Assembly (NCBI GenBank): GCA_947463125.1
Contig: CANHQZ010000002.1
Span: forward strand, 46,951-110,950
Direction: 5' to 3'
DNA from: Flavobacteriales bacterium
GTDB taxonomy: Bacteria; Bacteroidota; Bacteroidia; NS11-12g; UBA955
DNA: 64,000 nt
Part shown: in pieces, positions 1,500 through 64,000 of the stretch
Position numbering within the stretch: position 1 is the stretch's first letter
Layout of the letters: each line of letters opens with the position of its first letter
The notes under the pieces: model-generated
Databases searched by the model: none
The model's input: the letters and a program-made list of their open reading frames with translations, nothing else
What the model was told of the DNA's origin: nothing
Program-made: the position numbers and the translations under genes

Positions 1500-2122
1500 A
1501 AGTTTTCTTTTTCAAAGTTTAACCAGCTGATCTCTTTAAAAAGGTTTTTGCCTTTTTCTGTGGTAACAGCATGTAAGTGGTATTTTATGGTTTCAATGTA
1601 TTCTTCCCGGAAACTTCTGATTTCCTCTCCATCAAACAGCGTGTTCTGAAACATGGAAAAAATCAGACACATATATATACGTGCCACTCGGCTGCGATGC
1701 ATGTCCTCTCTGAAAAGACCGAGTTCAACGCCTTTTTGTAGATTTTGGTCAACGCTCTGCAATGCAAAGCGGTTTCGGTGTTCTGTCAGGTGCGTGTAGC
1801 TTGCAGGATAGAATTTTTGTAAATCGAACAATACGGAAGGGTGGACATTCTTGTTCATTTCCAGCACGAAATCGGCGATCTTGGCTATCTGCAACACAGG
1901 GTTTGCCTCCGATGTCATAATCTGGGTGGTGTTTTTTTCCATTTCGGCAATGTGCATTGAAATGGTGTCAAATACCAGCTGGTCTTTATCCTGATAATGT
2001 TTGTAGATGGTCTTTTTTGACATGGACAAGGCCTTGGCTACATCGTCCATAGATACACTCCTCACACCAAGTTCCATGAAAAGTTTAGCCGCCGTCCTCA
2101 AAATCCTTTCCTGCACTTCCAT
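1496..2122 (-). CDS. TetR/AcrR family transcriptional regulator
   Basis: The N-terminal HTH (ILRTAAKLFMELGVRSVSMDDVAKALSMSKKTIYKHY) is a canonical TetR_N. It is the first gene of the efflux operon. Confidence 0.85.
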   Translation of the reverse strand: MEVQERILRTAAKLFMELGVRSVSMDDVAKALSMSKKTIYKHYQDKDQLVFDTISMHIAEMEKNTTQIMTSEANPVLQIAKIADFVLEMNKNVHPSVLFDLQKFYPASYTHLTEHRNRFALQSVDQNLQKGVELGLFREDMHRSRVARIYMCLIFSMFQNTLFDGEEIRSFREEYIETIKYHLHAVTTEKGKNLFKEISWLNFEKENL

Positions 2123-2147
2123 AATGGCGCTGCAAAAGTAAGAAAAT

Positions 2148-2171
2148 AAACCAAGGAAACCAAGAAGGTTT
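2148..2171 (-). terminator. Weak candidate terminator downstream of sppA
   Basis: AAACC-aagaa-GGTTT hairpin at 2157..2171, followed on the minus strand by a T-rich tract. It is short and imperfect. Confidence 0.25.
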
Positions 2172-2206
2172 GCAAAGTTTCCTGCGGAGGTGATGCTGAT
2201 TTCTTA

Positions 2207-3967
2207 TTAGTGAATTTGAATGTCAAACGGCATGCGCATGTATACACCGCGGCTGTTCATGACCCTTTTCATCTCGGCATAGGGGAGGTGCAGCATACCC
2301 ATTTCTTTTTTGATCCACTGGTCTGTTGCTTCGGCTGTTCCGGCTTTGCCAAAAAGCAGTTCCAGGGTAGATTTTTGCTTGGGCATGCTGACAATCCGGT
2401 ATTTTTTCAGTTTTGCTTTTGCAGCCGCGCTGCTGATGGCTCTTTGAAGCCCACCGTAGGCATCTGTTAGGTTAAGGTTTTTGGCATAAATACCGGTATA
2501 AACGTGCCCTTCGGCAAGTTGTTTTACCCTGCCGGTATCCATGTGTCTGCCCTTAGCCACGATTCCGGTGAAATCTTCATAAATATCATTTACCATCCCC
2601 TGAAAATAACTGCGCATTCCCTGGCTAAGCGGTTCGTCGGGACGCCAGGTAACGGCATAATCACCGGTAAGAACGGTTTCGTAACTCAGCCCCAGTTTTT
2701 CCTTATACATCTTGGATGTATTGGGAATCATGGCAAACACACCTATGCTGCCTGTAATGGTAGTGGGTTGGGCGAAAATACTGTCTGCCAGACATGCGAT
2801 ATAATAGCCTCCGCTGGCAGCAACGCCACCGAAACTGGCAATCACCGGCTTAACCTTGCGCATCAGTTCAATTTCGCGGGCAATTATATCGCTGGCATTG
2901 CTGCTTCCTCCCGGGCTGTTTACCCTAAGCACAACGGCTTTGATATTGCTGTCAAGCCTTGCCTTCTTTAGTGTTGCGGCCAGCGATGTGCTCCCAATAC
3001 CGTCACCCGATTCATTGTTTCCCATGTTTATTTCGCCGGAGGCATAAATGACGGCAATTTTAGCATCGCCTTCACCGGTATTCCAGCTTCCCTTGGCATA
3101 TTCTTCAAAGGCATATTTGTTCAGTTTTTTACCGGGTTTGCTCTGTGATAGCTGTATCAGTTCATATTCCACCTGGTCTTCATACTTCAATCCGTCTACC
3201 AGTTTGTATTGCAGGGCAAGATTTGCATTGCGTGCCCTGAAATTATTGGCAATGTCTGCAACGGTTGCGGAATCCATATTTCGCGATGCGGCAATGTTTT
3301 TCATGCAATATCCAAACAGACTGAAAACGTAGTCGCGTACCTGTTCACGGTTAGCATCACTCATTTTATTTTGTATAAATGGCTCAACCGCACTTTTATA
3401 TTTTCCTGCCTTGAAGACCTCAAACTCAAGGCCGAGTTTGTCGAGCATTCCTTTGTAAAGTGCTGTCTGTCCGGCATATCCGTTAAACTCAAGTATCCCT
3501 TTTGGATTCAGATAAATCTTGTTACAGGCCGATGCGATGTAGTAGCCTGCGTCTGAAAAGAGCTCAGCATAGGCAATTACGAACTTGCCCGTTTTGCGGA
3601 ATTCCAGGATTTTCTGTCTGATTTCTTCGGCGGTCCCCATGCTTCCTGCATACAAATCGGTACGCAGGTAAACCCCTTTAATTTTATCGTCTTTGGCAGC
3701 CTTGTCGAGGCCGAAAAGAATTGCATTGAGACCGACCGGAGATAATTCTTCGCCGGAAACGGAAAGTTCTGATAAAGGATCGTCCGCAGCCCTGTCGGGT
3801 ATGTCGCCTGTCAAGGTTAGTTCAAGAACGGTGTTGTTTTTAACCTCCGGTTTTTCACCCATGCTTCCGGCTATGCCACCTATAACAGCGGCAAAAAAGA
3901 AAATAATCAGCACCATGCCGATGAAAAAACCGATGATGCTGGCAAATATATTTTTCAGGAATCCCAT
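2207..3967 (-). CDS. sppA: Signal peptide peptidase SppA (67K type, protease IV)
   Basis: 586 aa with an N-terminal TM segment and a duplicated ClpP/crotonase-like S49 peptidase fold. The length and architecture match the 67K SppA type. Confidence 0.85.
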   Translation of the reverse strand: MGFLKNIFASIIGFFIGMVLIIFFFAAVIGGIAGSMGEKPEVKNNTVLELTLTGDIPDRAADDPLSELSVSGEELSPVGLNAILFGLDKAAKDDKIKGVYLRTDLYAGSMGTAEEIRQKILEFRKTGKFVIAYAELFSDAGYYIASACNKIYLNPKGILEFNGYAGQTALYKGMLDKLGLEFEVFKAGKYKSAVEPFIQNKMSDANREQVRDYVFSLFGYCMKNIAASRNMDSATVADIANNFRARNANLALQYKLVDGLKYEDQVEYELIQLSQSKPGKKLNKYAFEEYAKGSWNTGEGDAKIAVIYASGEINMGNNESGDGIGSTSLAATLKKARLDSNIKAVVLRVNSPGGSSNASDIIAREIELMRKVKPVIASFGGVAASGGYYIACLADSIFAQPTTITGSIGVFAMIPNTSKMYKEKLGLSYETVLTGDYAVTWRPDEPLSQGMRSYFQGMVNDIYEDFTGIVAKGRHMDTGRVKQLAEGHVYTGIYAKNLNLTDAYGGLQRAISSAAAKAKLKKYRIVSMPKQKSTLELLFGKAGTAEATDQWIKKEMGMLHLPYAEMKRVMNSRGVYMRMPFDIQIH

Positions 3968-4220
3968 AAAATTTCAACTTTTCGTCTTACGAAGATAACC
4001 GGCAATGAAAATGTAAAACAATGTTTCATCGTTTAACATTATCAATTACGCGATTAAGGGAGTTTTTAATATTGTTTTGCAGTTTCCTTATTTACAAAGA
4101 ACTTTGGGCACAAAATTTGGCTTATTGTAGTTAATATGAATTCAAAAACATTCAATTCCCTTTAATTACGCAGTTTTAGACTGTTTGAGAAGGTGGAGTT
4201 TGTTTTAATGTACAGTTTTT

Positions 4221-7200
4221 GTGTTTATAATAATATACAAATCAGTGCTTATGAAAAACAACATTACGAAATCAATCTTACTGGCTTCTGCAGTTATTCT
4301 TACCGCAAAGCTCCATGCACAGCAGACCATCGGACTGCAAATGGGTAACCACAATGCTTCTTATGCCTATGCATTGAATCCTGCACAGACCTATTCCAGC
4401 AAAAACCGGTTTTATTTCAACTTCTGGGGCGCCGGTGCGGGATTCACTAACAATTTTCTGACCTATTCAGCCCCTTTCAGCCTTTGGCAAATGGGTGCCG
4501 GAAATTATCCAGATAAATACAAGAATGCGGCAGGCAACCTGGATTTTAATCCATCCTGGCTGAAACTCGACGGAAATACAGATAACTGGAAACTGTACTA
4601 TCTGGATGAAGCCTATGGACCGTCCATGCACTTCAGGATAACTCCGAGAACCGCCATCGGTTTTGGTATAAAGTCGGTGGCCGGAATGAGTATTACCGGC
4701 GTTAATAAAAACCTGGGCAATCTTTTCAAGTTTGGCCTGGATAGCAATGGACAGGGTTTTTCGGGCCCAAATGGTGCGCAAATTGGCGTGGATTATGACA
4801 TTTCAAGGTTCTCCATCAACACAGACAAGTGGCAAGAGTGGTTCTTTTCTCTGGCTGGTGTTACCCGTGACAAGGGACGTCATTTTACCAAATGGGGCGC
4901 TACCGGAAAAATGCTGCTGGGCATGGGTGCAGCGCATCTGGGTTCAACCGGAGGCACTTACCGTTTCAATAACTATAACCAAGTGCAGTTTAATAATTTG
5001 CAATCTACCTGGTTTCATACCGACGATGAAAGTGCAACACGCACCCTTACCAGCCCTTTTGGGATGAAATTTGATTTTCTCCAGGGTGGAGGTTTGGGCG
5101 CCGATATTGGTTTTATGTATGAAAACCGGCCGGAAAAAGGCAGAAAGCGCTATAATAATCCCTGGTTTGATTGCCTGGATGAAGATAAAAACGAATATAG
5201 ATGGCGTTTTGGATCCAGTTTGACCGACCTCGGCTTTATTGTTTATGGTGGTCAAAACAGGCTGATAAACAATAAAAACGCTACATGGAACGTGAACAGA
5301 AACCTGGTAAATACATATCAGGGTTTTGGCACGGATCCGCTGACCAATGTGAGTACCGGTTTTTACGACAGCCTGAATTCGGATGCTGCCAACAATTTTG
5401 TCACCACTACGCCTGCCGCCTTGAATGTGCAGTTTGATCGCAGTTTTGGCAATGATTTCTATCTTGGGGTAAACTGGACCCACAGTTTGAAAGGCGATTA
5501 TGCCTGGGGTGTCCGCCGTGCCTCATTCCTCAGTGCCGTTCCTCGCTGGGAAACCGAACATGCTGAAATTGGCATGCCACTGACCCTTACAAGGGATTAT
5601 GAACAATTGAATGTTGGATTATACGGACGTTTAGGCCCATTCACACTGGGAACAGACAACCTTGCAGGAATCATGAAGTATGCCTCCAAAGGTGAATATA
5701 CCGGAGCAAATGTTTATTTCGGTGTGCGTTTGAAGCTGGAAGCCTGCGGCTGGTGGTACTACAGATCAAAAGAATACAAGGATTCCGTAAGAAATACCAA
5801 AACAGAAGTTCAAAAGAACGATACTTTCTGGAAGAGGGATACTATTACAGTCATTAAGCGCGATACCATCCGCAAGACAGATACGGTTGTAAAGTATAAA
5901 AATACCGAAGTGAGGCCCGATCTCAGGAATAAAGAAGAGGAGCTGCGCAAAAAAGAGGCAGAGCTGAGGGCAAAAGAAGAAGATTTGCGCAAACGGGAAC
6001 AGAACATTACCGGTACCGGGGGCAATTGCAAAGCTTGTCAGGATGAACTGCTTTTTGTGAGACAGCAACTCACCAATACCCGTGACCAATTATCCAGGAT
6101 TCGCACCCAACTGGATGATTGCAACCGCAATAAGGCTGTAATTACCGCAGAAAATGAAGATTTGAAAAAGAGAAATGCGGCACTGGCTGCCGAGGTAGAC
6201 AAACTGAAGCGGGAGAACGCCGTATTGCGACTTAACACCAATCCCTGCGACAGACAGGTGAGGAGTCGGGATTCACTGCTGGCCGTGGAAAGAGAGAGAA
6301 ATGCCCGCATTCAGGCTGAGCTTGACAAGAAGAAGGCAGATTGTGATATAGTGCAGAAAGAATTGGATAATACCAAAAAAAGGGTATCGGTGCTGGAAGC
6401 GGAAGTGGCGGAAGGCAAAAAGAGAATTGCCGTTTTGGAAACCGAATTGTCTAATTGCAGGCTGGGCAACGCAGGAAGCAATGCTGATTGCCTAAACAGG
6501 GTGAAACAGCTGGAAGCTCAGATTGCTGCTGAAAAACAGAAAAATGCAGCCCTTGAGAAAGATCTTGCCGACACCAAAGTGAAACTGGATGCCGAAGTTA
6601 AGAAAAATGCCACACTGATGCTTGATCTCGATGCCTGCCGTAAGGCTTCTGCGCTGGATAAAAAACGGATTGCTGAACTGGAAGCCTTGCTAAAAAACAG
6701 CAACAGCGGTGATTGCGGACCGTTTAAACAAAGAATTGCAGAACTGGAGGCGGAGGTTGCAACGCTGAAAGCCAACCAGGATAAGCAAACAAAGACCATT
6801 TCCGAACTGGAAGCCAAGCTGAAAAACGGAAGTGGTTCAGAAGAGCTGAATAAGTGCAAGGCCGATCTGGAAGCTGCCAGAAAGCGTATTGCAGAGCTGG
6901 AAGCTGAATTGGTAAATATAAAAAAACAGCGAGATCAGTATCAGGCAGAACTGGAGGCCAACAAGAAGAAAGTGGCTGAACTGGAAGCTAAGCTTAAAGA
7001 CTGCGAAAGCAAGGGGAATAGCTGCACTGAATGTGAGGAAGAACTGGCTCAGATTAAAATTCAGCTGGAGCAGAAAGAAAATGCTTACAATGCGCTCAGA
7101 GAGGAACAAAAGGCTTGCATAAAAGCCCTTGAATCTACCAGAGCCAAACTGACTGAAGCAGAAAACAAGCTGAAAAATGGAGCCGGTGACAAGAGCAACA

Positions 7201-7445
7201 AGGAAAAAGAACTGCAGGCTGAAATTGACAGGCTGAATTTAATCATCCTGCAGTTGAATGCGGATGTTAAAGCGCGTCAGAATTCACTGGATGACCTAAA
7301 AGAGGCATACGAAAAACTCGAGAACAGCAATGCTGAACTGGCAGGCAGAATAAAAACCATGCAGGCCGAACTCGATTTGCTGAAGAATCAGATCAACACA
7401 CTGCGTATGCAATTAAAAGAATGTCAGGAGGCAAGCGGCAAATAA
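4221..7445 (+). CDS. Secreted hypothetical protein: putative outer-membrane beta-barrel domain fused to a long Cys-rich coiled coil
   Basis: It has a signal peptide. The first ~520 aa are Gly/aromatic-rich beta-type sequence ending ...GANVYFGVRLKL. From ~aa 540 to 1074 it is an uninterrupted heptad-type coiled coil with repeated KRIAELEAEL-like units and about 20 regularly placed Cys residues. Confidence 0.6.
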   Translation: MFIIIYKSVLMKNNITKSILLASAVILTAKLHAQQTIGLQMGNHNASYAYALNPAQTYSSKNRFYFNFWGAGAGFTNNFLTYSAPFSLWQMGAGNYPDKYKNAAGNLDFNPSWLKLDGNTDNWKLYYLDEAYGPSMHFRITPRTAIGFGIKSVAGMSITGVNKNLGNLFKFGLDSNGQGFSGPNGAQIGVDYDISRFSINTDKWQEWFFSLAGVTRDKGRHFTKWGATGKMLLGMGAAHLGSTGGTYRFNNYNQVQFNNLQSTWFHTDDESATRTLTSPFGMKFDFLQGGGLGADIGFMYENRPEKGRKRYNNPWFDCLDEDKNEYRWRFGSSLTDLGFIVYGGQNRLINNKNATWNVNRNLVNTYQGFGTDPLTNVSTGFYDSLNSDAANNFVTTTPAALNVQFDRSFGNDFYLGVNWTHSLKGDYAWGVRRASFLSAVPRWETEHAEIGMPLTLTRDYEQLNVGLYGRLGPFTLGTDNLAGIMKYASKGEYTGANVYFGVRLKLEACGWWYYRSKEYKDSVRNTKTEVQKNDTFWKRDTITVIKRDTIRKTDTVVKYKNTEVRPDLRNKEEELRKKEAELRAKEEDLRKREQNITGTGGNCKACQDELLFVRQQLTNTRDQLSRIRTQLDDCNRNKAVITAENEDLKKRNAALAAEVDKLKRENAVLRLNTNPCDRQVRSRDSLLAVERERNARIQAELDKKKADCDIVQKELDNTKKRVSVLEAEVAEGKKRIAVLETELSNCRLGNAGSNADCLNRVKQLEAQIAAEKQKNAALEKDLADTKVKLDAEVKKNATLMLDLDACRKASALDKKRIAELEALLKNSNSGDCGPFKQRIAELEAEVATLKANQDKQTKTISELEAKLKNGSGSEELNKCKADLEAARKRIAELEAELVNIKKQRDQYQAELEANKKKVAELEAKLKDCESKGNSCTECEEELAQIKIQLEQKENAYNALREEQKACIKALESTRAKLTEAENKLKNGAGDKSNKEKELQAEIDRLNLIILQLNADVKARQNSLDDLKEAYEKLENSNAELAGRIKTMQAELDLLKNQINTLRMQLKECQEASGK
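6360..7010 (+). repeat. Intragenic degenerate tandem repeats (GAACTGGAAGC core) encoding IAELEA coiled-coil units
   Basis: The core ...(att/gtg)gc(a/t)ga(a/g)ctgga(a/g)gc... recurs at ~6373, 6427, 6667, 6733, 6799, 6889 and 6973. Spacings of 54 to 240 nt give the repeated (K/R)(I/V)AELEA peptide. Confidence 0.5.
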
Positions 7446-28310: not shown

Positions 28311-29009
28311 GTGGAATTTCCGGTAGAAATCCAGAACGCAACCATTTACCAGGGCCGAATCCCGGTGCTGAATGAGGTGAATATTCGCATCAACAAAGGC
28401 GAGTTTGCGTATCTAATTGGTAAAACGGGTTCGGGTAAGTCCAGCCTGCTTAAAACCCTTTACGGTGAACTTCCGCTAACGGAAGGAACCGGTAATGTAG
28501 CTGGAATCGGTTTGCAAGATTTAAAAAAGGCACAGATTCCTTATCTGCGCAGAAAACTGGGCATTGTTTTTCAGGATTTTCAGTTACTGACCGACCGCAG
28601 CGCCCTGGATAACCTTTTGTTCGTGCTCAAAGCTACGGGCTGGAAAGACAAACAGCAACGCATTGACAGGGCCAATGAGGTTCTTGCCAAAGTAGGGCTG
28701 GAAAACAAAGGGTACAAAATACCGGCAGAACTAAGCGGTGGTGAACAGCAACGCCTGGTTATTGCGCGTGCACTCCTGAATAACCCCGAGGTGATTCTGG
28801 CCGATGAACCCACCGGAAACCTGGATCCCGATGTCTCCGACGAGGTAATGCGCATGTTGCAGGATGTTTGTAAGGAAGGACGCTCTGTGGTTATGGCAAC
28901 CCATGATTACCGGCTCATTGAAGAGTTTGGCGGTACCATCTACCGCGTGGCAGGTGGTAAAGTCAACAAAATAGATTCTCTCAAAGAATTAGTGCCGAAT
29001 CAACAGTAA
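28311..29009 (+). CDS. ftsE: FtsE-like ABC transporter ATP-binding protein
   Basis: Intact Walker A GKTGSGKSS, signature LSGGEQQRLVIARAL, Walker B ILADEPTGNLD. The ~230-aa size is typical of FtsE/LolD-type ATPases. Confidence 0.65.
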   Translation: MEFPVEIQNATIYQGRIPVLNEVNIRINKGEFAYLIGKTGSGKSSLLKTLYGELPLTEGTGNVAGIGLQDLKKAQIPYLRRKLGIVFQDFQLLTDRSALDNLLFVLKATGWKDKQQRIDRANEVLAKVGLENKGYKIPAELSGGEQQRLVIARALLNNPEVILADEPTGNLDPDVSDEVMRMLQDVCKEGRSVVMATHDYRLIEEFGGTIYRVAGGKVNKIDSLKELVPNQQ

Positions 29010-30512
29010 GGTTCTGGCGGCATTTGCAGCATCAATCATATAGGTTCCATCTGACAAATCTGAAACGGAAATCGTTCCTGAAACCGATCTGATCGTTTTT
29101 ACCAAAGTCCCATTGATCTGGAAAATGCGTACATATTTGCCGATGAAGGCCGGCGAATAAACTTCATTTTGTGCAGGATTGGGGAACAATGCAATATTCT
29201 GCTTTTTATCAATCGTATTGCCTGCAGGATAAATCATTTGCTGCAAAGCGGTGGTTGTGCGCTCGCTGATATAGGGTTTCACACCAAAACTCACATGGTT
29301 GCCCCAGGCTTTGGTATCGGCTTGCTGCCAGTCTGCGAGCGTAAAACCATAGTCGGAAGCCCTGGCTCCCGTGAAGTAGGGATCAGCAGCCACCGCCGCT
29401 GCCACGATAGACTTGTGGTTATCAATAATGGCAAACAGGCTGTCTGCCTTGTAAGCACCGTCAATCAGGTTTCGCAATTCCTGTTCATAAGCCATTTTCC
29501 ACCGGGTCACCCCAAGTATTTTATAGGTAAGGGGAGCTTTTGAGTTAGTCAGCTTGCCCCAGGCATGAATATTTCGTTTTTGGATATCGCTAACACCCCA
29601 TTGCACACCGAATGTATTATCCATGTCGTACGGTATGTATACAAAGCGGTTATCCGACATTCTGTGGTAAAGGAAATAATTGTTTTTATTGTAAAAGTAA
29701 TTGTCCCAGTGCCCCATCAGAACCTCTGCCGCCAGCACTTTCAGATAGGCATTCACATCAAAAACCTGCTCAATCCAAGATTCAAAGGAATCTTTTGGGC
29801 TGTTGTTGATTACATTGATAAAATAAACAAGATCACTGTAATCATCGGCGACGGTATTGGTTTTCAATTCATAAGCCCGCTCATTCAGGGGAGAAGGATT
29901 GATTAGGTCTTTGTAAGGTTGCTGGAATGAACCCAGCCAGCCCAGATCTGCAGGCCAGCTGCATTTGTAGAGGTTTCCTATGCTTTCGCCAAATCGGGAT
30001 TGGAGAAATGTTTTATCGATGTATTCTGAATGGTTTCTCAATCCCTGATATGTGCCATTTACGTACAACCTGACAGGATTACTGCGCGTTGCAACAATTC
30101 CGGCCCGGGCCAGAAATCGTGCACTGAGAAATTCCCGAACCAAGGAAGGATCGTTGTGGTTGCCATTCAGGTTCATGTTTTTCAGCCCCTGATAGGTTTG
30201 GCTCTGAAATGCACCCAAATCCAGGCGGTAGCCTCTCTTCTCCGCTTCACGGGATGAATTTCCTTTCACACGCATTCCGATATTGCGCAGCGTGTCTTTT
30301 TGATCGTAAATAAACAATGAAGAAAAATAAACATTGTCCCATACGTTTTTATTCATCTTCGTCCAGCTGTCCTTGGGTAAGAAAATATCGACACGGTGGA
30401 TTTTATTGTCGTAAATAGTTCCGTTTTGCGGCCATACGGCTTGCTGCGCCTCCAGGTGCCGCGTTGGAAGCAGAAAAGTCACGGCCAAAAAGAAGCAGCG
30501 GAAGATTTTCAT
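28989..30512 (-). CDS. CotH-family (atypical kinase fold) protein with a T9SS C-terminal sorting domain
   Basis: Signal peptide, then a CotH-like core. The C-terminal ~80 aa (LFPNPAQNEVY...GTLVKTI...SDLSDGTYMI) are a type-A Por secretion tail. It overlaps the upstream membrane-protein gene by 4 nt. Confidence 0.7.
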   Translation of the reverse strand: MKIFRCFFLAVTFLLPTRHLEAQQAVWPQNGTIYDNKIHRVDIFLPKDSWTKMNKNVWDNVYFSSLFIYDQKDTLRNIGMRVKGNSSREAEKRGYRLDLGAFQSQTYQGLKNMNLNGNHNDPSLVREFLSARFLARAGIVATRSNPVRLYVNGTYQGLRNHSEYIDKTFLQSRFGESIGNLYKCSWPADLGWLGSFQQPYKDLINPSPLNERAYELKTNTVADDYSDLVYFINVINNSPKDSFESWIEQVFDVNAYLKVLAAEVLMGHWDNYFYNKNNYFLYHRMSDNRFVYIPYDMDNTFGVQWGVSDIQKRNIHAWGKLTNSKAPLTYKILGVTRWKMAYEQELRNLIDGAYKADSLFAIIDNHKSIVAAAVAADPYFTGARASDYGFTLADWQQADTKAWGNHVSFGVKPYISERTTTALQQMIYPAGNTIDKKQNIALFPNPAQNEVYSPAFIGKYVRIFQINGTLVKTIRSVSGTISVSDLSDGTYMIDAANAARTLLLIRH

Positions 30513-32017
30513 TTTGCAGAAGACAGTTTGTAAATATAGAGATTGCCGTACAATGTAGGTATTGATCCTGTCACTATTGCACTTGTTGGCTTCACCTGCT
30601 GTTGTTTATTGAGCATGCTGTTTCGGCTTACTGGCATGGGGTAGTTATATACATCCGTATACACCGGTGATTTTTGGATGGTGTTGAGTGAGTCTGCATC
30701 CATAAATGTGATTCCTTCTTCCTTGAATTTTTTTTGATAATAGGGCGTTTGTGTAGACAGGTAATTCTCCAGCATTACCCTTTCTCTCGCAATGAAGATT
30801 AGGTTTTTGGCCTTTTCTTCTTCCGCGATTTTCAATAACAAATTCAATTCAGCGCCGTACCTTATTGTTTTAATATTGGCGTTGGGAATCAAATAAACTC
30901 CCAGGTTCCAACAGAGCATGGCAGTTGCCAAAGGCAATGCTTTGTGTTGCCATTTTATTAGGAAAGCAGGGAAGGAAAGCAGCAGCAAAAACGGAATCAT
31001 GACCATGAATTCGGCGTTGCCCACAGAATATACGGCCCATAAAAACTGCAAAATCAAGGCAAAACGCAGCCAGCGAAAGCCTGAGAAGTTGTTTTGCGTT
31101 TTTTCATGGATGTTATTTTGGTTTTTTGCAAGAATTGCAACAGCAGTCAAGCCCAATGCCAGTATGGGAAAAGCCCATAACCATGTCCACGCATCGAGAA
31201 AATATGGAATGTTGCCGTGCACCTGAATCCAAGTTCGTATGCTGTTGATTGCGCTATACTTCAGGTTGTCAAATCCGGGAATTAGGGAAACGGTGCCATT
31301 CATGGCATCCGAAAAAGGATATTGCCACCAGATTTTATGCTCGTAGGTGGCAGAACCAACATAGGCAAGCAATATTATGCCCAAAGAAATTCCCGCTGCA
31401 ACCCATTTTTGTTTACCTGCCGGGAAAAATAAAACTGCCGCAAGCCACCACCAGCAATGGATTTGGTGAAACAACACCGCCAATGCCAGCAAGCCGAATC
31501 CGGCGTATAGGTTCGCATGGTTTTCTGCTTTTTGGTGTTTTAATAAATACAGCGTTCCCCACAGGCTCAGCAACAGCGGTAATAGGTAGGTTTCATTTTC
31601 CGTAGCAAAACGCATGGTGGCGAATGCACTTCCTGCAAGCATTACAGCTGCTTTGGCAGCTGACTTGTTGTCTGAAATCAATTCAAAACAACGCTTTAAC
31701 AGGTATAAAGAACCCGCAGCTGCGATGGCATTGATGGCCTGCATCCACATTAGGTAATGCGTAAAGTGCTTTCCAATAAGCCCGTAGGTAATTTGCCCGA
31801 AAGGCCCATAGAGCAGGTGGTGCGGGGAGAAAAGCCATTTCCCGGACTCGGCATTTTGCAGAAATTCACCGGCATAACCCACCGCATCGCCGGAAGGGTT
31901 AATACCCGGCAAAAGCAGGTATAAAAGCCCAAATCCAAGCCATGCGAGAGACAATATCCGGTTTTTAACCGCCTGCATACAGGCAAAGGTAAGATACAGG
32001 GCGTATCTTTGCCGCAT
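30509..32017 (-). CDS. Polytopic membrane protein, putative GT-C-fold glycosyltransferase
   Basis: 502 aa with ≥10 hydrophobic helices and a C-terminal soluble domain. Its layout resembles PMT/ArnT-like GT-C enzymes. The family assignment is tentative. Confidence 0.45.
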   Translation of the reverse strand: MRQRYALYLTFACMQAVKNRILSLAWLGFGLLYLLLPGINPSGDAVGYAGEFLQNAESGKWLFSPHHLLYGPFGQITYGLIGKHFTHYLMWMQAINAIAAAGSLYLLKRCFELISDNKSAAKAAVMLAGSAFATMRFATENETYLLPLLLSLWGTLYLLKHQKAENHANLYAGFGLLALAVLFHQIHCWWWLAAVLFFPAGKQKWVAAGISLGIILLAYVGSATYEHKIWWQYPFSDAMNGTVSLIPGFDNLKYSAINSIRTWIQVHGNIPYFLDAWTWLWAFPILALGLTAVAILAKNQNNIHEKTQNNFSGFRWLRFALILQFLWAVYSVGNAEFMVMIPFLLLLSFPAFLIKWQHKALPLATAMLCWNLGVYLIPNANIKTIRYGAELNLLLKIAEEEKAKNLIFIARERVMLENYLSTQTPYYQKKFKEEGITFMDADSLNTIQKSPVYTDVYNYPMPVSRNSMLNKQQQVKPTSAIVTGSIPTLYGNLYIYKLSSAK

Positions 32018-55368: not shown

Positions 55369-56781
55369 TTATTTCCCCCGGCCCTGAATCATGATCATGG
55401 CAGTGTAAATCATGATTTTTATGTCAAGTCCAAGACTCATGTTTTCCAGGTAAAGAATATCGTATTTCATACGCTCCACCATCTGTTCAACATTTTCGGC
55501 ATAACCAAATTTAACCTGTCCCCAGCTGGTTATACCCGGTTTTATGCGGTGAAGTCTAACATAGTAAGGCGCCTTTTTTACAATCTGCTCAATGAAAAAT
55601 CTCCTTTCCGGCCTGGGTCCTACGATGCTCATTTCTCCCATTAGCACGTTTATAAACTGAGGTAATTCATCAAGCCTCGATTTTCTGAGAAATGAGCCAA
55701 CCCGTGTTCTTCTGGGGTCTTTTTCACTGCTAAGCTGTGGCCCGTTGCTTTCAGCATCCGTGCGCATACTTCTGAATTTGAAAATCTGAAATGTTTTTCC
55801 CTTAAATCCAATTCTTTCCTGTCTGAAGAAAACAGGACCTGCACTGTCTAATTTAATTGCTATGCCGATCAGTAAAAAAACAGGCAGTCCCACTAACAAT
55901 GCCAGCAAACTAATCGAGATGTCAAAAAACCGTTTTGCCGTTTTCTGCCATTGTGGCATTACCTCAAAATCAACCTCCACCAGCATCGCTCCCAATATGT
56001 TGTTCATTTTGACCATTCCCAAAACCATACCGTAGCTGTCAGGAAGGATTTTTAAATGTACTTTCTCATTTTGTATCTGATCGACAAGGCCCGGAACCCA
56101 ATCGTGTTCTTCGTCATCAAGACATATAATAACATCTTCAATACGATATTCCTCAATGACAGCTGAGATTTCATCTTTGGTGCCCAGGCAGGGGAGGTTG
56201 CCCATGTTGGAGCGGGTATGGTCTTTCCCGCTGATATATCCCTGAATAAAAAATCCTTCAGATTTTCTGGCAATAGAAAGTTCATGAAACAACTTCTCTG
56301 CATTGTTGCCATTTCCCACCAGCAGTGTTCGGTATCCCCACTTTCGATGCTGTATCAAATAAATGGTTCTGCTTACCACGACCAGCCTGAGCATTAATGT
56401 TATACCAGTATGCAGTGAAAAATAAACCAGCAGAGACTTGTAATAATCCCGGTAATTGCCAACACTGTCGTCCAAAATAAGCAAAAAGAATATGATAAGG
56501 CTTCCTACAATCCCTGAAATGAAGGTCCTTTCCACTTCACGCAGGCGACTTCGTCTGAAAATATTTTTGTAGTAACCGCTGCCTGCATAAATCAGCAGCC
56601 ACATGGCAGGAATAGCCAGTAAACCTACATACAGCTTCAAATCATTATTTACCGGGATATCATAACCATGCTTACCTGCTTCCACAATGTGCTTTCTGTA
56701 AAGAAAAAAGAGAAGCCAGGCTGAACCTGCTGATATTAAATCGGTGATGACATGCAGTACGATTTGGAATCTGCGGTTCAT
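55369..56781 (-). CDS. Undecaprenyl-phosphate hexose-1-phosphate transferase (WbaP/exopolysaccharide polyprenyl glycosylphosphotransferase family)
   Basis: N-terminal TMs, then a C-terminal bacterial sugar-transferase domain (LDELPQFINVLMGEMSIVGPRPE...KPGITSWGQV). Confidence 0.85.
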   Translation of the reverse strand: MNRRFQIVLHVITDLISAGSAWLLFFLYRKHIVEAGKHGYDIPVNNDLKLYVGLLAIPAMWLLIYAGSGYYKNIFRRSRLREVERTFISGIVGSLIIFFLLILDDSVGNYRDYYKSLLVYFSLHTGITLMLRLVVVSRTIYLIQHRKWGYRTLLVGNGNNAEKLFHELSIARKSEGFFIQGYISGKDHTRSNMGNLPCLGTKDEISAVIEEYRIEDVIICLDDEEHDWVPGLVDQIQNEKVHLKILPDSYGMVLGMVKMNNILGAMLVEVDFEVMPQWQKTAKRFFDISISLLALLVGLPVFLLIGIAIKLDSAGPVFFRQERIGFKGKTFQIFKFRSMRTDAESNGPQLSSEKDPRRTRVGSFLRKSRLDELPQFINVLMGEMSIVGPRPERRFFIEQIVKKAPYYVRLHRIKPGITSWGQVKFGYAENVEQMVERMKYDILYLENMSLGLDIKIMIYTAMIMIQGRGK

Positions 56782-57698
56782 TTTGGATAGCTGAATCTTA
56801 TATTGTCAATAAAAATTTCCTGAGCGGTTTTCAGCTCTGCAGGTTTCATAGGGCTTATCATTAGCTGTATCTCTGTATCGCCGGGCTGGTTGTAAAGCTC
56901 ATAGATAAGGTTAATGTAAAAACGTTTCCAGGTATTTCCGGTCTCAAAAATGTAAACGTAGGGAAGATAGAGTTTTCCTGAACTGTTTTTGCGAATCATG
57001 GCCATTTGAACAGGAACCGGAGTCTTTATGTCAAATTCAAACATGATATCTGTTCCCAAAAACGGAAGATTACCGAAATATTTAAAAGAGGCCATGTCGA
57101 TGACTTTGGCCGTGTCTGCTGCCGCCATCACAACCTTCATGCATCGTGTGTTGCCCAAATATCGGCCTTTTAGAGAAAACGGCTCTGTAACGATATAAGA
57201 AGTGTCGCCGGTTCCCGAAAATAATCGTATGAGACTGCTGTTGTTGTCCTCAAAATCTTCCAGCCAGGGAAACTCTACGTTGTTTTTATAGGTCAGCCTA
57301 ATGTTTCCGGCATGGGTTATTTTACCTTCCTCTAAATCGATGAATGTATCGGTTCTGTTGAACAGCCTGTGAATTACGTGCTGATTTTGAGCTCCATTCA
57401 GACGCACCGAAGGAATGATGGAGAGTTTTCGTCTGCCGGAAAAAAGAACTGGTATGGTAGAGGGAATCTCAAACAGGCCTATAAACTGCTCATCCACGTA
57501 CACATTTACTGCCGAAATTTCATGAATATTGTTTCCCTGAGCCAATGTGGTGCTAACGCTGACCGAGTCAATCCTGATATATGACGGTATTGTTTCTGAC
57601 TCACGGTCACACCCCGATAAAAGAGTAAACATGAGAGTTAGCGCCGGCAATAAAATTCGGAGGCCCATGCTGCGAAAATACAACACTCTTGTCCGCAA
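56778..57698 (-). CDS. Hypothetical lipoprotein
   Basis: Lipoprotein signal (LTLMFTLLSGC). 306 aa, no recognised family. It overlaps the glycosylphosphotransferase start by 4 nt. Confidence 0.5.
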   Translation of the reverse strand: MRTRVLYFRSMGLRILLPALTLMFTLLSGCDRESETIPSYIRIDSVSVSTTLAQGNNIHEISAVNVYVDEQFIGLFEIPSTIPVLFSGRRKLSIIPSVRLNGAQNQHVIHRLFNRTDTFIDLEEGKITHAGNIRLTYKNNVEFPWLEDFEDNNSSLIRLFSGTGDTSYIVTEPFSLKGRYLGNTRCMKVVMAAADTAKVIDMASFKYFGNLPFLGTDIMFEFDIKTPVPVQMAMIRKNSSGKLYLPYVYIFETGNTWKRFYINLIYELYNQPGDTEIQLMISPMKPAELKTAQEIFIDNIRFSYPK

Positions 57699-57721: not shown

Positions 57722-58684
57722 CTACACTTCGTGATACCGTCTTTGAACCTTTTCGGTAATCAATGTAGCCAGTCTGTTCACTTCCAGCATGTTTTCCAGT
57801 GATGAGAGAGGAGTAAGACCTTTGGAAATGTTTTCTTCAAAATTTCTGAATTCCATTTTCCAGGCATCAAAAGGAATAACAGGCCGCTGAATGAGCGTTA
57901 GCTCCTGCTGCTGCTGGGCTTCCGTTTCTTCTAGAAAAGTAAGCTGATCTTTGTTTTCCGTCTGCCTGTATTCATTGAGTGTGTTTTCTGTAAAATCCAG
58001 CGAAAACAATTTGTCCTGCTGGTAAATCTTTAAACGGTGTGTTCCGGGTTCTATAGCCCGTCCTGCGGAAATATGGCAAACTGAGTCGTTATCAAATTCA
58101 ATGTGAATATTGAGTAAATCCGGGTTTTTACCGAATAAAAACAGTGGTCGTGCCGATACGTCCCTGATTCCACACTGGGCAGTTCTGATCACCAGATCAA
58201 GATCCTGGGCAAGTTCTTTAAAAAGCCAGGTTTCAAAACCACCGGGAGCAGGGGGTCTGCACTCCTTTTCCAATTTAATGAAACGTGGCTTTCGCACAAA
58301 CTGGGATGCTGTTGTATACAGTGGTTTATTATATAATGTGTTGGCTATATGGAAACAATTGCCACTTTCTGCGTGCAAACGCATGAGCTGTTCGGTGAAT
58401 CCAATGTTGTTGATTAAAAATCCATCAAGCAGAATATGTTTGCCAAGTCGTGTAAGATTTTCAATCATGGCAGTGTCTATGTGTCTCACATGCCTGTCGA
58501 TGATGAAGACGTCCGCCTGGTCGGCCAACTCAAATACATAAAGCAGGTTCCCCGCAGAATCCGCATTCATATCATGGTCGGGATCATAATATCCGCTGAA
58601 TTGAAAGACCATGCTGTCTTGCAGCAGATGAGCAAAAATTTCAGCTTTACGTTGTGTACCTAGAATGACAGTTTTCAGTTTCAT
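57722..58684 (-). CDS. Hypothetical protein, possibly a Gfo/Idh/MocA-like oxidoreductase fold
   Basis: Trimmed to MKLKTVILGTQRKAEIF..., a Rossmann-like start. The rest is unassigned. It is the first gene of the co-directional cluster. Confidence 0.35.
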   Translation of the reverse strand: MKLKTVILGTQRKAEIFAHLLQDSMVFQFSGYYDPDHDMNADSAGNLLYVFELADQADVFIIDRHVRHIDTAMIENLTRLGKHILLDGFLINNIGFTEQLMRLHAESGNCFHIANTLYNKPLYTTASQFVRKPRFIKLEKECRPPAPGGFETWLFKELAQDLDLVIRTAQCGIRDVSARPLFLFGKNPDLLNIHIEFDNDSVCHISAGRAIEPGTHRLKIYQQDKLFSLDFTENTLNEYRQTENKDQLTFLEETEAQQQQELTLIQRPVIPFDAWKMEFRNFEENISKGLTPLSSLENMLEVNRLATLITEKVQRRYHEV

Positions 58685-58809
58685 GCAAATTTTTGGAGAC
58701 GCCTCTCTTATTTTTGTAACCTGCAGCAAATTTGCAGGACATTAATAAAATTATTTTTTTCGGTTTCTCACACATGTTCACAACCCCACCCATATCTGAA
58801 AGTCCTGTA

Positions 58810-60727: not shown

Positions 60728-60876
60728 GATATTGTTAGCAAAAATAGCTCTTTTGCATCAATATGCCTGCCTTAATTTGCACTTGAAAACTTGTTAATAT
60801 TCTACAAAAAATATTTTAAGCTGCTGCGTTCAGTTATCGATTTGGTCAATACTTTGGTTGAATAATAAAAAATTCA

Positions 60877-60884
60877 TAATTTTG
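60877..60884 (+). promoter_or_regulatory. Candidate -7 element (TAATTTTG) for the giant adhesin gene
   Basis: Exact TAnnTTTG match ~64 nt upstream of the ATG at 60948, with TTG triplets ~20 nt further upstream. Confidence 0.3.
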
Positions 60885-60947
60885 AGGCAACGATGGGTTG
60901 TGTTGTATTGTCAATCACAACATCAATCCTTTAAGATTGAATCGCTT

Positions 60948-63900
60948 ATGATGAGAAAAATACTGTTTGCTATGGCCCTGTTCATGGGTCTTTCCGACAA
61001 TTTGAATGCTACCCACATGATGGGTGCAGATGTTTCCTATCGTTGTTTAGGCAACGGAAGGTACCGCATTATTGCCAAGGTTTACCGGGATTGCAAGGGG
61101 ATTAGCTTCAACAGCCCATCCTTTCAGGCTTTTGCCGGTCTGAACGGCGGGAATACCTGTGGCAGTGTTGGGTTATCAATCAGCCGCACAGGAATCCGCG
61201 ATGTTACGCCCCGCTGTTCAACCGCCGCTCAGCCCTGTAATCCGCAAAATACAAATTTTACAGGTCAGGGTGTTGAGGAGCATACTTTCGAAACTACTGT
61301 AGATTTTAACGTCGCTCCGCTAAGGAATTTCCGAAATAATCCCAATTGCTGCGAAGTTACTTTTGCTATAGGTCAGTGCTGCCGAAATGATCAGATTACG
61401 ACTCTCAACGGTCCTGGTGGAACGGACTTTTGGGCGACTTGTATGATTAACATATGTAACATTCCTAAGACTACAAATAAATGTAATTCAAGCCCGATTC
61501 TTTCCAATCAGCCTGTGGGTTACCTGTGTTGCAACCAGACATATTACTTCAATAACGGGGCCATTGATACCATCGATTTTGACTCGCTGTCATACAAGTT
61601 AATAAACGGAATTAATACACTGCCCAATAACAGTGTAAGTTACAAAAATCCTTTTACGTTCAGGTTCCCAATGACGCCTTTCTGCATTCCTATCGGAAGC
61701 GTTAGTTGCACGCCCAATCCAAATACCAATCCGCCCCGAGGATTCTTCTTCGATGAAGGTACAGGTGATATAGTGTTTACGCCTACCAAGTGTGATGAAA
61801 TAGGAGTAGTGGTTATTGAGATATCGGAATTTCGAAGAGATAGTGCCACCGGAGTCTGGCTCAACATTGGTCGAACGCGACGGGATATGCAATTAATTGT
61901 TCTCGCCGATTGCGGATACAACAATGCCCCAAAACTTTTAGGCCCCACCAGTGTGAAAGTCTGCGAAGGTGACCGTATTTGCTTCAAGATTGACGGCAAG
62001 GACGAGACCTTTGTGCCTAACCAGACCATTCCGGATACTGTGCAGATGAAATGGAACCGCGGTATTCCCGGAGCTACCTTTACCATATTAAATCCTACAG
62101 CCAGAGAGAAGACAGCAGAGTTTTGCTGGCAGACCAAAATAGGACAGGCCAGTGAAGTTTCCTATTCATTTACTGTTACCGCTACTGATGATCATTGCCC
62201 AAGACCTTCAACAGCTGTCCGCGGTTTCAAGGTAAAAGTAAATCCCCGTGCTTTCAGCACCCGTAAATATACTATTTTAAAATGCGGCCGCTTTGCCTGG
62301 GATGCCAATGTGCCCCCCGGATTCAAGGGTATTCCTACCTATCGCTGGAGTCTTCGCGACAGCAACGGGTCCAAGGAACTGCTGTTCTCCACCAAAAAGA
62401 CAGATACACTAACCTACAAGCGCGGTGGTAAGTACATTATGGTTCACACGGTAAACAACCCTGACAACTGTCCGACGATATACCGTGATACGATTATTGT
62501 ACCCAACCCGCCAACAGCCGTGCTGGCGACCAAGGATACGTTTGCGTGTTTTAACAGCTCCATCAGCCTTCAGCCAAACATATTGTTTGCAAAAGCGCCA
62601 TACCGTTACCGCTGGACACGCCCGATTACCCATATTTCTGGGGATACGAACAGCATGCTGACGATTCCGAAAATCGTTAGTGATTCAACGCTGGTGGTTC
62701 GGATTACCGATGGAGACGGCTGCCGTTTCTTCGATACGGTAACTGTGTTTAAGAAGTCGTTGCCGGTGGTAAGCCTGGGCCCTGACAAGCGGATATGTAC
62801 GTATGACAGCATGAAGTTTGATGCGGGTCATTCTGATACGGTATTCTATAGCTGGAACAGCGGTGACACAACCCGCGAGATCACCAAGCATGTGAAAGGG
62901 TTGTATATCGTAACGATCACAGACACCACCTGGTTATGCCAGCAAAAGGATACGGTAGAGTTGTTTGTGAACGATACGGTGGTGAGCATAGCGGGAGCGG
63001 ATAAGGAGATATGCCATCAGGATACGATGCTGCTGGCAGCACAGCACCGCCCGCCAAGTATTTCGGCAAACTACCGCTGGACAAACATAACCACCAGTAC
63101 CCTGCTTGGCACAAGCTTCTCGTACAAGGTATCTCCGCGTAACCCCACCTCACCCGGCGGCACGCCTGCGTTCTTCAACTACGAGTTGTTTACAAGGGTA
63201 ACGCAGGGAGGCGTGACGTGTGAGGATTATGATACGGTTCGGGTGCGTGTGAATGTACTTCCCCGCGTGTGGTGGGATCCGAAGCCACTGAAGAGCCAGT
63301 GTCACGCATTCGGCGATATACCGCTGTATCCGTTTGTAAATCCGAAGGCGGGCAACAACATCAGTGTATGGGCAGGAACGCGCAGGGTTCGCAACAACAT
63401 GGTAGACAGCCTTGCTCCGAACCAGTTCGTATACCGCACCACGCGATTAAATAACAGCACCCTTCAGAACGGGGTATTCCGTCAGGACAGGGTATACCTT
63501 CGATTCCGCGATACCAATGGATGTGTCAACATAGACAGTACAACCCAGCGTATCAATGGTACGCCTGTGGTTCAGTTGCAGAAGCGCACCTACTGCCAGG
63601 ATGCAGGTAAAGCGCCACTGGCCAACAGCATCATCCGCCCCCAGCCGGGTATAACGGTAAATGTGGCGTGGAAGGTGCTGGAAGTACCCAGTGGTATTGA
63701 TCCGACGAGCATACTGTATGAAGATCCTGTAGGAACCCAGCGTTTCTGGATGCGCTTTGGAGATCCGACAGAAGATAAGTATGCAGGTACATACAAGCTT
63801 GAGTACTGTGTTGAAGACAGGCTGACGGGCTGTAGGAAGTGCGATACCACCACCGTTGATATTATTACCGAACCGACGGTAAAGGTAACATCTCCCAATC

Positions 63901-64000
63901 CGCTGTGCGTAAACTGGGATACGATAGACCTGAACGACTATGTATTGCTGAACGGCAACCGCCCGAAGGAAGGTGATGGCTGGTTCACGGTGCTGGAATA
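60948..64000 (+). CDS. Giant secreted Cys-rich cell-surface protein with SprB-type repeats (gliding-motility/T9SS adhesin-like), 3'-truncated by the window edge
   Basis: I translated 60948..64000 by hand and found no in-frame stop, giving ≥1017 aa. It starts MMRKILFAMALFMGLSDNLNATHMMGADVSYRCLGNGRYRIIAKVYRDCKGI..., the conserved N-terminal module of large Bacteroidota SprB-like proteins. The first ~400 aa are very Cys-rich. From ~62300 there are 75 to 90-aa repeats of the SprB type (PTYRWSL.., PYRYRWT..GDTNSMLTI.., VFYSWNSGDTTREI...GLYIVTITD, SANYRWTN..). The in-frame stop upstream is at 60795 and 60948 is the first ATG. It is absent from the ORF track because the ORF is open-ended. Confidence 0.75.
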   Translation, partial: MMRKILFAMALFMGLSDNLNATHMMGADVSYRCLGNGRYRIIAKVYRDCKGISFNSPSFQAFAGLNGGNTCGSVGLSISRTGIRDVTPRCSTAAQPCNPQNTNFTGQGVEEHTFETTVDFNVAPLRNFRNNPNCCEVTFAIGQCCRNDQITTLNGPGGTDFWATCMINICNIPKTTNKCNSSPILSNQPVGYLCCNQTYYFNNGAIDTIDFDSLSYKLINGINTLPNNSVSYKNPFTFRFPMTPFCIPIGSVSCTPNPNTNPPRGFFFDEGTGDIVFTPTKCDEIGVVVIEISEFRRDSATGVWLNIGRTRRDMQLIVLADCGYNNAPKLLGPTSVKVCEGDRICFKIDGKDETFVPNQTIPDTVQMKWNRGIPGATFTILNPTAREKTAEFCWQTKIGQASEVSYSFTVTATDDHCPRPSTAVRGFKVKVNPRAFSTRKYTILKCGRFAWDANVPPGFKGIPTYRWSLRDSNGSKELLFSTKKTDTLTYKRGGKYIMVHTVNNPDNCPTIYRDTIIVPNPPTAVLATKDTFACFNSSISLQPNILFAKAPYRYRWTRPITHISGDTNSMLTIPKIVSDSTLVVRITDGDGCRFFDTVTVFKKSLPVVSLGPDKRICTYDSMKFDAGHSDTVFYSWNSGDTTREITKHVKGLYIVTITDTTWLCQQKDTVELFVNDTVVSIAGADKEICHQDTMLLAAQHRPPSISANYRWTNITTSTLLGTSFSYKVSPRNPTSPGGTPAFFNYELFTRVTQGGVTCEDYDTVRVRVNVLPRVWWDPKPLKSQCHAFGDIPLYPFVNPKAGNNISVWAGTRRVRNNMVDSLAPNQFVYRTTRLNNSTLQNGVFRQDRVYLRFRDTNGCVNIDSTTQRINGTPVVQLQKRTYCQDAGKAPLANSIIRPQPGITVNVAWKVLEVPSGIDPTSILYEDPVGTQRFWMRFGDPTEDKYAGTYKLEYCVEDRLTGCRKCDTTTVDIITEPTVKVTSPNPLCVNWDTIDLNDYVLLNGNRPKEGDGWFTVLE

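Follow-up and report, generated by a model that had tools for sequence, protein, structure and literature searches.

Among the fibres that Bacteroidota export by way of type IX secretion (T9SS), the only one with a solved structure is GhpA of Aureispira sp. CCB-QB1, a predatory member of the phylum. GhpA is a T9SS substrate of 5898 residues and 240 nm, with a stem of 52 immunoglobulin-like (Ig-like) repeats that intramolecular disulfides reinforce, such as Cys2988-Cys3140 between neighbouring domains, and that bears O-glycans. Homologs of PorP and PorE, named GhpB and GhpC, are encoded downstream, and the stems are heptamers whose parallel Ig-repeat chains form a hollow rod that catches prey (bioRxiv 10.1101/2024.01.29.577165). 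Its authors liken it to SprB (bioRxiv 10.1101/2024.01.29.577165), the filamentous surface protein of 6497 residues from Flavobacterium johnsoniae, which ends in a type B sorting domain and whose gene is directly followed by sprF. Type B cargo remains at the cell's surface, attached to PorP-like barrels (PMC9143113), and in F. johnsoniae nine of the 12 genes for type B substrates adjoin a gene for an sprF-like shuttle, the three orphans (Fjoh_1123, Fjoh_1720, Fjoh_4934) using a shuttle encoded elsewhere, Fjoh_1677 (PMC12618676). Here we describe a gene for a protein of this general class, located at the end of a stretch of 64,000 nucleotides (the window) from a Flavobacteriales bacterium (assembly GCA_947463125.1, contig CANHQZ010000002.1), where it occupies positions 60948..64000 of the plus strand and runs off the edge.

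We consider it moderately probable that the product is a T9SS-exported, surface-tethered fibril of about 1525 residues, composed of a GhpA-related stalk and a conserved three-domain head. In kind such a protein is ordinary: the kind is already known, its homologs are annotated as "gliding motility-associated", and the gene is a new example of it. The reading starts from an open-ended coding sequence that corresponds to the N-terminal two-thirds, approximately, of the protein. From the ATG at 60948 to the edge of the window at 64000 there are 1017 codons, and a scripted check of the translation found no stop among them, just as the initial annotation of this DNA, made from the letters alone, had reported a frame of at least 1017 residues open to the edge. 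The likely start is this ATG, or the adjoining one at 60951; the closest homolog, P0001, opens with MIRKILFAMALFMGLS at the same position, and the closest in-frame stop on the 5' side of 60948 lies at 60795. The G+C content is 49.0% in the open reading frame (ORF) at 60948-64000 and 45.8% in the window.

Homologs of the fragment number 441 at E<=1e-3, the best being P0001, which is 79% identical over 100% of the fragment, and full-length homologs have 1460-1580 residues. A scan of GTDB with one genome per species gave 294 relatives, and the taxonomic and locus description that follows covers the best 80 of these, all of which come from uncultured Bacteroidota metagenome bins, many or most of them from lakes or other fresh water. 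About 40 of these loci share a divergent upstream block made up of an M24 aminopeptidase, a protein-isoaspartate methyltransferase (PCMT), two unknown genes and a sugar transferase, with the identity of the M24 protein falling from 92% down to 55% across the shared loci. Since the block keeps the same divergent orientation in all of these, comparison of the gene order indicates an orthologous locus that has kept its chromosomal place throughout a lineage. Fourteen syntenic loci extend far enough to contain the whole gene, and in these it encodes 1496-1618 residues; the closest of them (L053:7001-11578) gives 1525, as does P0001. The gene is therefore real and conserved, and, given the lengths of its orthologs, about 1017 of some 1525 residues lie inside the window. 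These lengths refute the earlier expectation of a protein several thousand residues long with most of its gene beyond the window.

Several of the genomes hold two or three copies of the gene, only one of which stands in the M24-PCMT locus; examples are L014 and L029 (on the same contig, JAIYAW010000009.1), L007 and L022, L030 and L031, and the triplet L028, L038 and L075. The contigs that encode homolog P0002 (L001 and L002) were tried as a syntenic locus and set aside: their neighbourhood is different, so that P0002 is either a paralog or sits in a rearranged locus. Six carrier contigs (L003, L008, L009, L013, L023 and L058) are titled Sphingomonadales, Rhizobium or Bifidobacterium and are probably mislabelled bins. 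Two minus-strand ORFs of the window placed between the sugar transferase and the PCMT gene, at 56778-57698 (306 residues) and 57722-58729 (335 residues), are syntenic in about 37 loci at 35-85% identity, and neither has a match in Pfam or NCBIfam even at E<=1.

A probable export route is suggested by the C-terminal ends of the orthologs. P0001, P0002 and P0010 match the type B sorting model TIGR04131 with 43.8-45.9 bits (cut-off 35) and PF13585 (CHU_C) with 56 bits (cut-off 27), and the type A model TIGR04183 stays below its cut-off in the same proteins (14.5-17.3 bits vs 23). The initial annotation had anticipated a type B T9SS domain at the C-terminus, and the orthologs bear this out, the corresponding part of the copy described here lying beyond position 64000. 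Ahead of this domain, at residues of about 1250-1325 and thus also past the edge of the window, the orthologs have PKD domains (PKD_4, 69-72 bits; PKD, 28-34 bits). Use of the T9SS by the organism itself is indirectly supported by a CotH kinase-family protein encoded at 28989-30512 on the minus strand (PF08757, E=7e-57), whose T9SS sorting domain is of type A (27.6 bits, cut-off 27).

A link to a described fibre comes from the stalk, residues 433-1017 (62244..63998, plus strand), for which AlphaFold2 predicts some seven beta-sandwich (Ig-like) domains in tandem, each of 60-100 residues. AlphaFold2, run on these residues with an alignment of 56 sequences, gave an all-beta model with a mean predicted local distance difference test (pLDDT) score of 88.0 and a predicted template modelling (pTM) score of 0.52. 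In a Foldseek search of the PDB, the GhpA fragments 9fly, 9flp and 9flw ranked first, with E from 1e-23 to 1e-21 and template modelling (TM) scores of 0.43-0.48 over about 600 columns, against a TM of about 0.2 for generic eukaryotic Ig arrays. With the family profile the full 5898-residue GhpA was matched at E=8.9e-115, the alignment being spread over about 20 stretches: GhpA residues from about 1200 to 5640 match profile positions of about 457-775 repeatedly, and the sorting domains align as well (profile 1435-1505 with GhpA 5816-5885, 33 bits). Single-sequence phmmer against the PDB returned no matches, GhpA included, and the kinship becomes visible only with the family profile and by fold. 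Profile and predicted structure together show that the repeats of the stalk and those of the GhpA stem are homologous.

To which repeat family the stalk belongs follows from the same comparison. When 299 residues of the GhpA stem are compared with Pfam, they match Ig_7 ("Ig-like domain CHU_C associated") at E=1e-20 and give no SprB score; together with the homology of the stalk to GhpA, this makes the repeats of the window protein divergent members of the Ig_7/PKD-like group. Their divergence is considerable. Ig_7 (PF19081) has no match in the window fragment at E<=10, the best Pfam match in the fragment is PKD_4 with 26.1 bits vs a cut-off of 27, and the window repeats reach no Pfam threshold, whereas those of GhpA do so for Ig_7. 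Proteins of Pfam Ig_7 and PKD (PF18911, PF00801) share the same beta-sandwich repeat type, with Ig_7 being found in the GhpA repeats and in three of 49 members of the head family described below, and true PKD in the C-terminal third of the orthologs. Most stalk domains have one conserved Cys near their start and one near their end. The exact string Y-x-W-x-x-G-D-T occurs once, at residue 634, and a looser Y-R-W at residues 465, 554 and 709, with spacings of 89, 80 and 75 residues; the initial annotation, which had described at least four repeats of 75 to 90 residues with that core, was thus right about the spacing, but its core holds exactly for a single repeat and the others are Y-R-W variants. 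BLAST comparison of P0001 with itself found no internal repeats, these being too divergent, and windowed phmmer gave reciprocal repeat matches that are weak.

The label of SprB-repeat adhesin, which the same annotation had proposed, is not supported. The Pfam SprB repeat PF13573 is absent from the fragment at E<=1 and also at E<=10, from P0001, P0002 and P0010 at E<=0.1, from the precomputed domains of 120 listed homologs, and from 49 distant head-family members at E<=1e-4, and the GhpA stem piece is equally blank. "SprB-like fibre" is a fair functional analogy, but membership of the SprB-repeat family does not extend to this protein. By description, SprB and the window protein are alike in the type B sorting domain, which the orthologs predict for the latter, and in belonging to the class of filamentous surface proteins with Ig-like repeats; they differ in size, in PF13573 and in the sprF gene, which directly follows sprB and has no adjacent counterpart here.

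The absence of such a shuttle gene is a consistent property of the locus. The gene stands alone, its upstream neighbour being divergent and its downstream neighbours convergent, and in the 14 syntenic loci the genes that follow encode an ATG22/MFS transporter, ClpX, a Mur-ligase-like protein and a PfkB kinase, all housekeeping functions. No PorP/SprF shuttle gene was found adjacent to it, either in the flank within the window or in the flanks of the orthologs, and the unannotated neighbours were blank at E<=1. Because no PorP/SprF gene adjoins, the protein fits the pattern of an orphan type B substrate, and by gene arrangement it is likened to the three F. johnsoniae orphans, which are alike in having no linked porP/sprF-like gene. 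In one orthologous locus a second type B cargo gene (L018:11644-15192, plus strand, 1182 residues, CHU_C at E=3.5e-9) comes immediately after the homolog, with overlapping stop and start codons.

Against this background we can weigh the first alternative, namely that the protein is a gliding adhesin in the strict sense of SprB, which its type B domain would load onto the gliding track and which, propelled along the surface, would drive movement. The class of type B sorting domains does include SprB, whose own type B domain in F. johnsoniae targets the gliding machinery, and Fjoh_4750 also moves helically (PMC12618676); source annotations name homologs "gliding motility-associated", and the stalk is homologous to GhpA, which has itself been likened to SprB. 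However, the annotation name refers to the C-terminal domain only, not all type B substrates move, and gliding is undocumented for the carriers, which are in the main metagenome bins from lake water. Added to this are the lack of any SprB-repeat match in every search run, a size of about one quarter that of SprB (about 1525 vs 6497 residues) and a downstream region with no sprF-like gene, which together make this alternative unlikely.

Somewhat less likely still is that the protein forms a miniature GhpA-like appendage, with chains assembled side by side into a rigid multimeric rod whose heads capture prey, particles or flagella. The likeness to GhpA extends to a Sec signal peptide (predicted in the window protein), probable export by the T9SS, a sorting domain homologous to that of the orthologs and tandem Cys-containing Ig-like repeats with a Y-x-W core, as profile and fold searches indicate for stem and sorting domain; GhpA stems are prey-catching heptamers, and the window protein has a head predicted to be rigid (pTM 0.85) on a stalk with conserved Cys and glycosylation sequons. 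The differences are nevertheless large. GhpA has 5898 residues and 52 stem repeats, as compared with about 1525 residues and about 12 stalk domains; its GhpB/GhpC (PorP/PorE) genes lie downstream, and no such genes occur in the orthologous loci of the window gene. In the sequence comparison its hook module (residues 26-1402) is not matched, as no GhpA stretch aligns below profile position 396, and the head has no sequence similarity to any part of GhpA, a head-only profile remaining blank. Furthermore, the kinship is distant, as GhpA escapes detection by single-sequence phmmer.

A second property of the stalk recalls the GhpA stem. The motif D-[ST]-[AILVMT], the Bacteroidota O-glycosylation sequon reviewed in PMC12871550, occurs 20 times in the fragment (residues 207-991), as compared with 3.8 +/- 1.8 expected; this is an enrichment of about five-fold, and none of 5000 residue shuffles reached 20. 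The stalk contains 16 of the 20 sequons, and seven of the sites recur in 90% or more of the homologs. Their density, 2.0 per 100 residues, compares with 0.1-0.8 in cytoplasmic proteins of the same window. O-glycosylation has been observed in GhpA, and the window protein is rich in the corresponding sequon; the enrichment, taken together with the glycans present on every Ig domain of GhpA, suggests by analogy that the stalk is heavily glycosylated.

Whether the fibril would remain on the cell is the point at issue in the next alternative, that it leaves the cell and acts in the medium as a soluble protein of binding or matrix type. T9SS cargo can be either anchored or released (PMC10202324, PMC12618676), and no anchoring partner is encoded near the gene. 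Yet the type B substrates that have been studied, SprB and PG1035, stay bound to PorP-like surface proteins (PMC9143113), and a long stalk that ends in a head is best understood as a tethered structure, so that we regard release as improbable, to about the same degree as the rigid multimeric rod. As the model for the anchoring of the window protein we take PG1035 of Porphyromonas gingivalis (PMC9143113), a much smaller protein, with the putative PorP-PG1035 pair having about 80 kDa and PorP about 33 kDa (PMC9143113).

At its other end the protein carries a head, residues 22-432 (61011..62243, plus strand), which AlphaFold2 divides into three beta-sandwich domains (approximately residues 23-175, 176-322 and 323-432) in a compact, all-beta model with a mean pLDDT of 87.9 and a pTM of 0.85. 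It is Cys-rich, as the initial annotation had noted of a domain of about 400 residues, but the count is 22 Cys in residues 24-430 and not the more than 30 then given; the whole fragment has 37. The conserved N-terminal motif ATH..G..V.YRC.GNG.Y.I..KVYRDC, also pointed out at that stage, is retained in both close homologs (consensus AxHMMGADMSYxCLGNGKYKIxAKVYRDCRG) and distant ones (AxHxxGxDIxYxxLGxxKYxIxxKxYRDCxG). Conservation of the head exceeds that of the stalk in 35 of 41 homologs (mean identity 60% vs 46%), and the head has far fewer insertions and deletions; its invariant residues comprise H23, G108, E110, H112 and D119, together with most of the Cys and a number of Asp and Asn.

Comparison of the head with Pfam, NCBIfam and the sequences of the PDB gave no match, and a head-only profile found none among the PDB sequences at E<0.5, in a library that includes the full 5898-residue GhpA. 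Fold searches against the PDB and a viral library returned generic Ig and cadherin arrays with TM scores of 0.15-0.23 and offered no functional lead, and there was no enzyme fold among the top 50 matches of either search. Relatives are nonetheless plentiful: when 1.84 billion cluster representatives were searched exhaustively with HMMER, 4489 matched at E<=1e-3 and 768 of them at E<=1e-30, the clusters being defined at 50% identity. In all 150 listed of these 4489 relatives the head is N-terminal, in host proteins of 281-1746 residues. Among 49 diverse members of the head family the only other domains are PKD/Ig spacers and sorting domains (type A in 21, type B in eight), and enzyme domains are absent from all 49. 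Variants of about 710 residues, such as P0117, keep the head and end in a type A sorting domain. As far as these searches indicate, the head is a large domain family that lacks a curated definition, and it is likely to form the ligand-binding tip of the fibril. Its conserved acidic residues could, if they cluster where the domains join, suit Ca2+ sites of the kind that stiffens cadherin-like arrays.

That the core fold of lytic polysaccharide monooxygenases (LPMOs) is also a beta-sandwich invites one last alternative. The idea that the head is an enzyme or a metal-binding domain, for example one with a histidine-brace copper site as in LPMOs, which the stalk only displays, draws on an invariant H23 that adjoins the predicted signal-peptide cleavage site, on the invariant G108-x-E110-E111-H112 and D119 with many further Asp, Asn and Glu, and on the predicted beta-sandwich fold, but it is very improbable, and the histidine-brace version is rejected, because a brace needs His as residue 1 and the canonical -3/-1 rule places one residue (T, S or D) ahead of it in P0002, in P0010 and in the window protein, because no enzyme or LPMO stands among the top 50 fold matches and no catalytic Pfam or NCBIfam family was found, and because the acidic residues fit Ca2+ sites equally well, with cadherins and protocadherins among the fold matches. 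Each of the four alternatives, gliding, multimeric rod, released protein and enzymatic head, lacks specific support.

We therefore return to the surface-tethered fibril, for which the following course of events can be envisaged. The N-terminus, residues 1-21 (60948..61010, plus strand; MMRKILFAMALFMGLSDNLNA), looks like a Sec signal peptide: on inspection it consists of MMRK, a hydrophobic core and a terminal ...NLNA|TH, a feature that recurs in the homologs, and AlphaFold2 predicts a helix at residues 2-15 and a low-confidence linker at 16-20. The initial annotation had likewise assigned a signal peptide here. This segment would direct the protein to the periplasm, where the conserved Cys would be oxidised, probably to some 11 disulfides in the head and to roughly one pair in each domain of the stalk, and where the 20 or so sequons would probably be O-glycosylated by the general Bacteroidota system. 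The type B sorting domain, as seen in the orthologs, would then lead to export through the SprA translocon, after which an outer-membrane shuttle of the PorP/SprF type would keep the protein on the surface. Outside the cell, some 12 Ig-like domains arranged in tandem, whose homology is to the stem of GhpA, would make up a stiff, glycosylated stalk that holds the rigid, disulfide-rich, three-domain head off the cell; scaled from GhpA (240 nm for 5898 residues), the length would be roughly 50-60 nm.

Several points weigh against this account. The sorting domain of this particular gene is predicted from orthologs that are at most 80% identical and lies past the end of the window, and the window shows no core T9SS component. 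The type B substrates that have been studied come from cultured gliding or host-associated species, in contrast to the present lineage, which is known from metagenome bins only, and some T9SS cargo is released into the medium and not anchored (PMC10202324, PMC12618676). The D-T pairs that are conserved may belong to the structure of the repeat and not be glycosylation sites. Finally, the searches with the head yielded no ligand, binding pocket or functional homolog, and the word "adhesin" is taken from the architecture alone.

Some further features of the locus and the window complete the description. The initial annotation had remarked that the ORF list shows only short antisense ORFs in this region, and three such ORFs were confirmed on the minus strand, at 61599-61892, 61640-62137 and 63590-63898. 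They are shadow ORFs and not genes, because all of them are contained in a conserved, homolog-supported gene on the plus strand; the real gene is missing from the list because the listing leaves out any ORF that continues past the edge of the sequence, which is an artefact and not biology. Bacteroidota promoters follow a -33/-7 pattern, and a candidate of this type is located at 60853..60884 on the plus strand, 64 bp on the 5' side of the ATG and inside the divergent intergenic region of 220 bp at 60728-60947. It consists of a -33-like TTTG (60853-60856), a 20-bp spacer and a -7-like TAATTTTG (60877-60884). The motif that had been singled out as promoter-like is thus present at 60877..60884 with TTTG upstream of it, but counts across the window are not above chance (44 vs 55 expected for the single motif, two vs three for the composite -33/-7), and as a promoter the site is plausible but not demonstrated. 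A search of the whole 64 kb with Rfam cmscan found no family at the gathering score, and no tRNA, rRNA or riboswitch.

Elsewhere in the window, the CotH protein at 28989-30512 constitutes a second T9SS cargo, and the 502-residue ORF that adjoins its gene (30509-32017, minus strand) has no family match. For the plus-strand ORF at 4221-7445 (1074 residues) the sole match, to the crescentin rod domain, falls short of the threshold (35.6 bits vs a cut-off of 100), and its product may be a long coiled-coil protein.

What the gene contributes is, in the first place, a correction: it encodes a mid-sized T9SS type B surface protein and not a giant homolog of SprB. Through its stalk the protein is related to GhpA, the only T9SS fibre with a solved structure, which can thereby serve as a template for the common proteins that are annotated with a "gliding motility-associated C-terminal domain". 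The head, N-terminal and fused to either class of sorting signal, would deserve definition as a family and an effort to identify what it binds. More speculatively, and with a low probability in our own estimate, it could be an undescribed, very widespread tip module, present in at least 4489 clusters and capping type A and type B cargo alike, which is mounted here on a GhpA-like stalk as a miniature, possibly oligomeric appendage for the capture of particles, algae or prey; if this were true, the principle of GhpA would extend from rare filamentous predators to abundant planktonic Bacteroidota. The conserved position of the gene in uncultured freshwater Bacteroidota means that the protein could be a lineage-typical surface structure for attachment to particles or algae.

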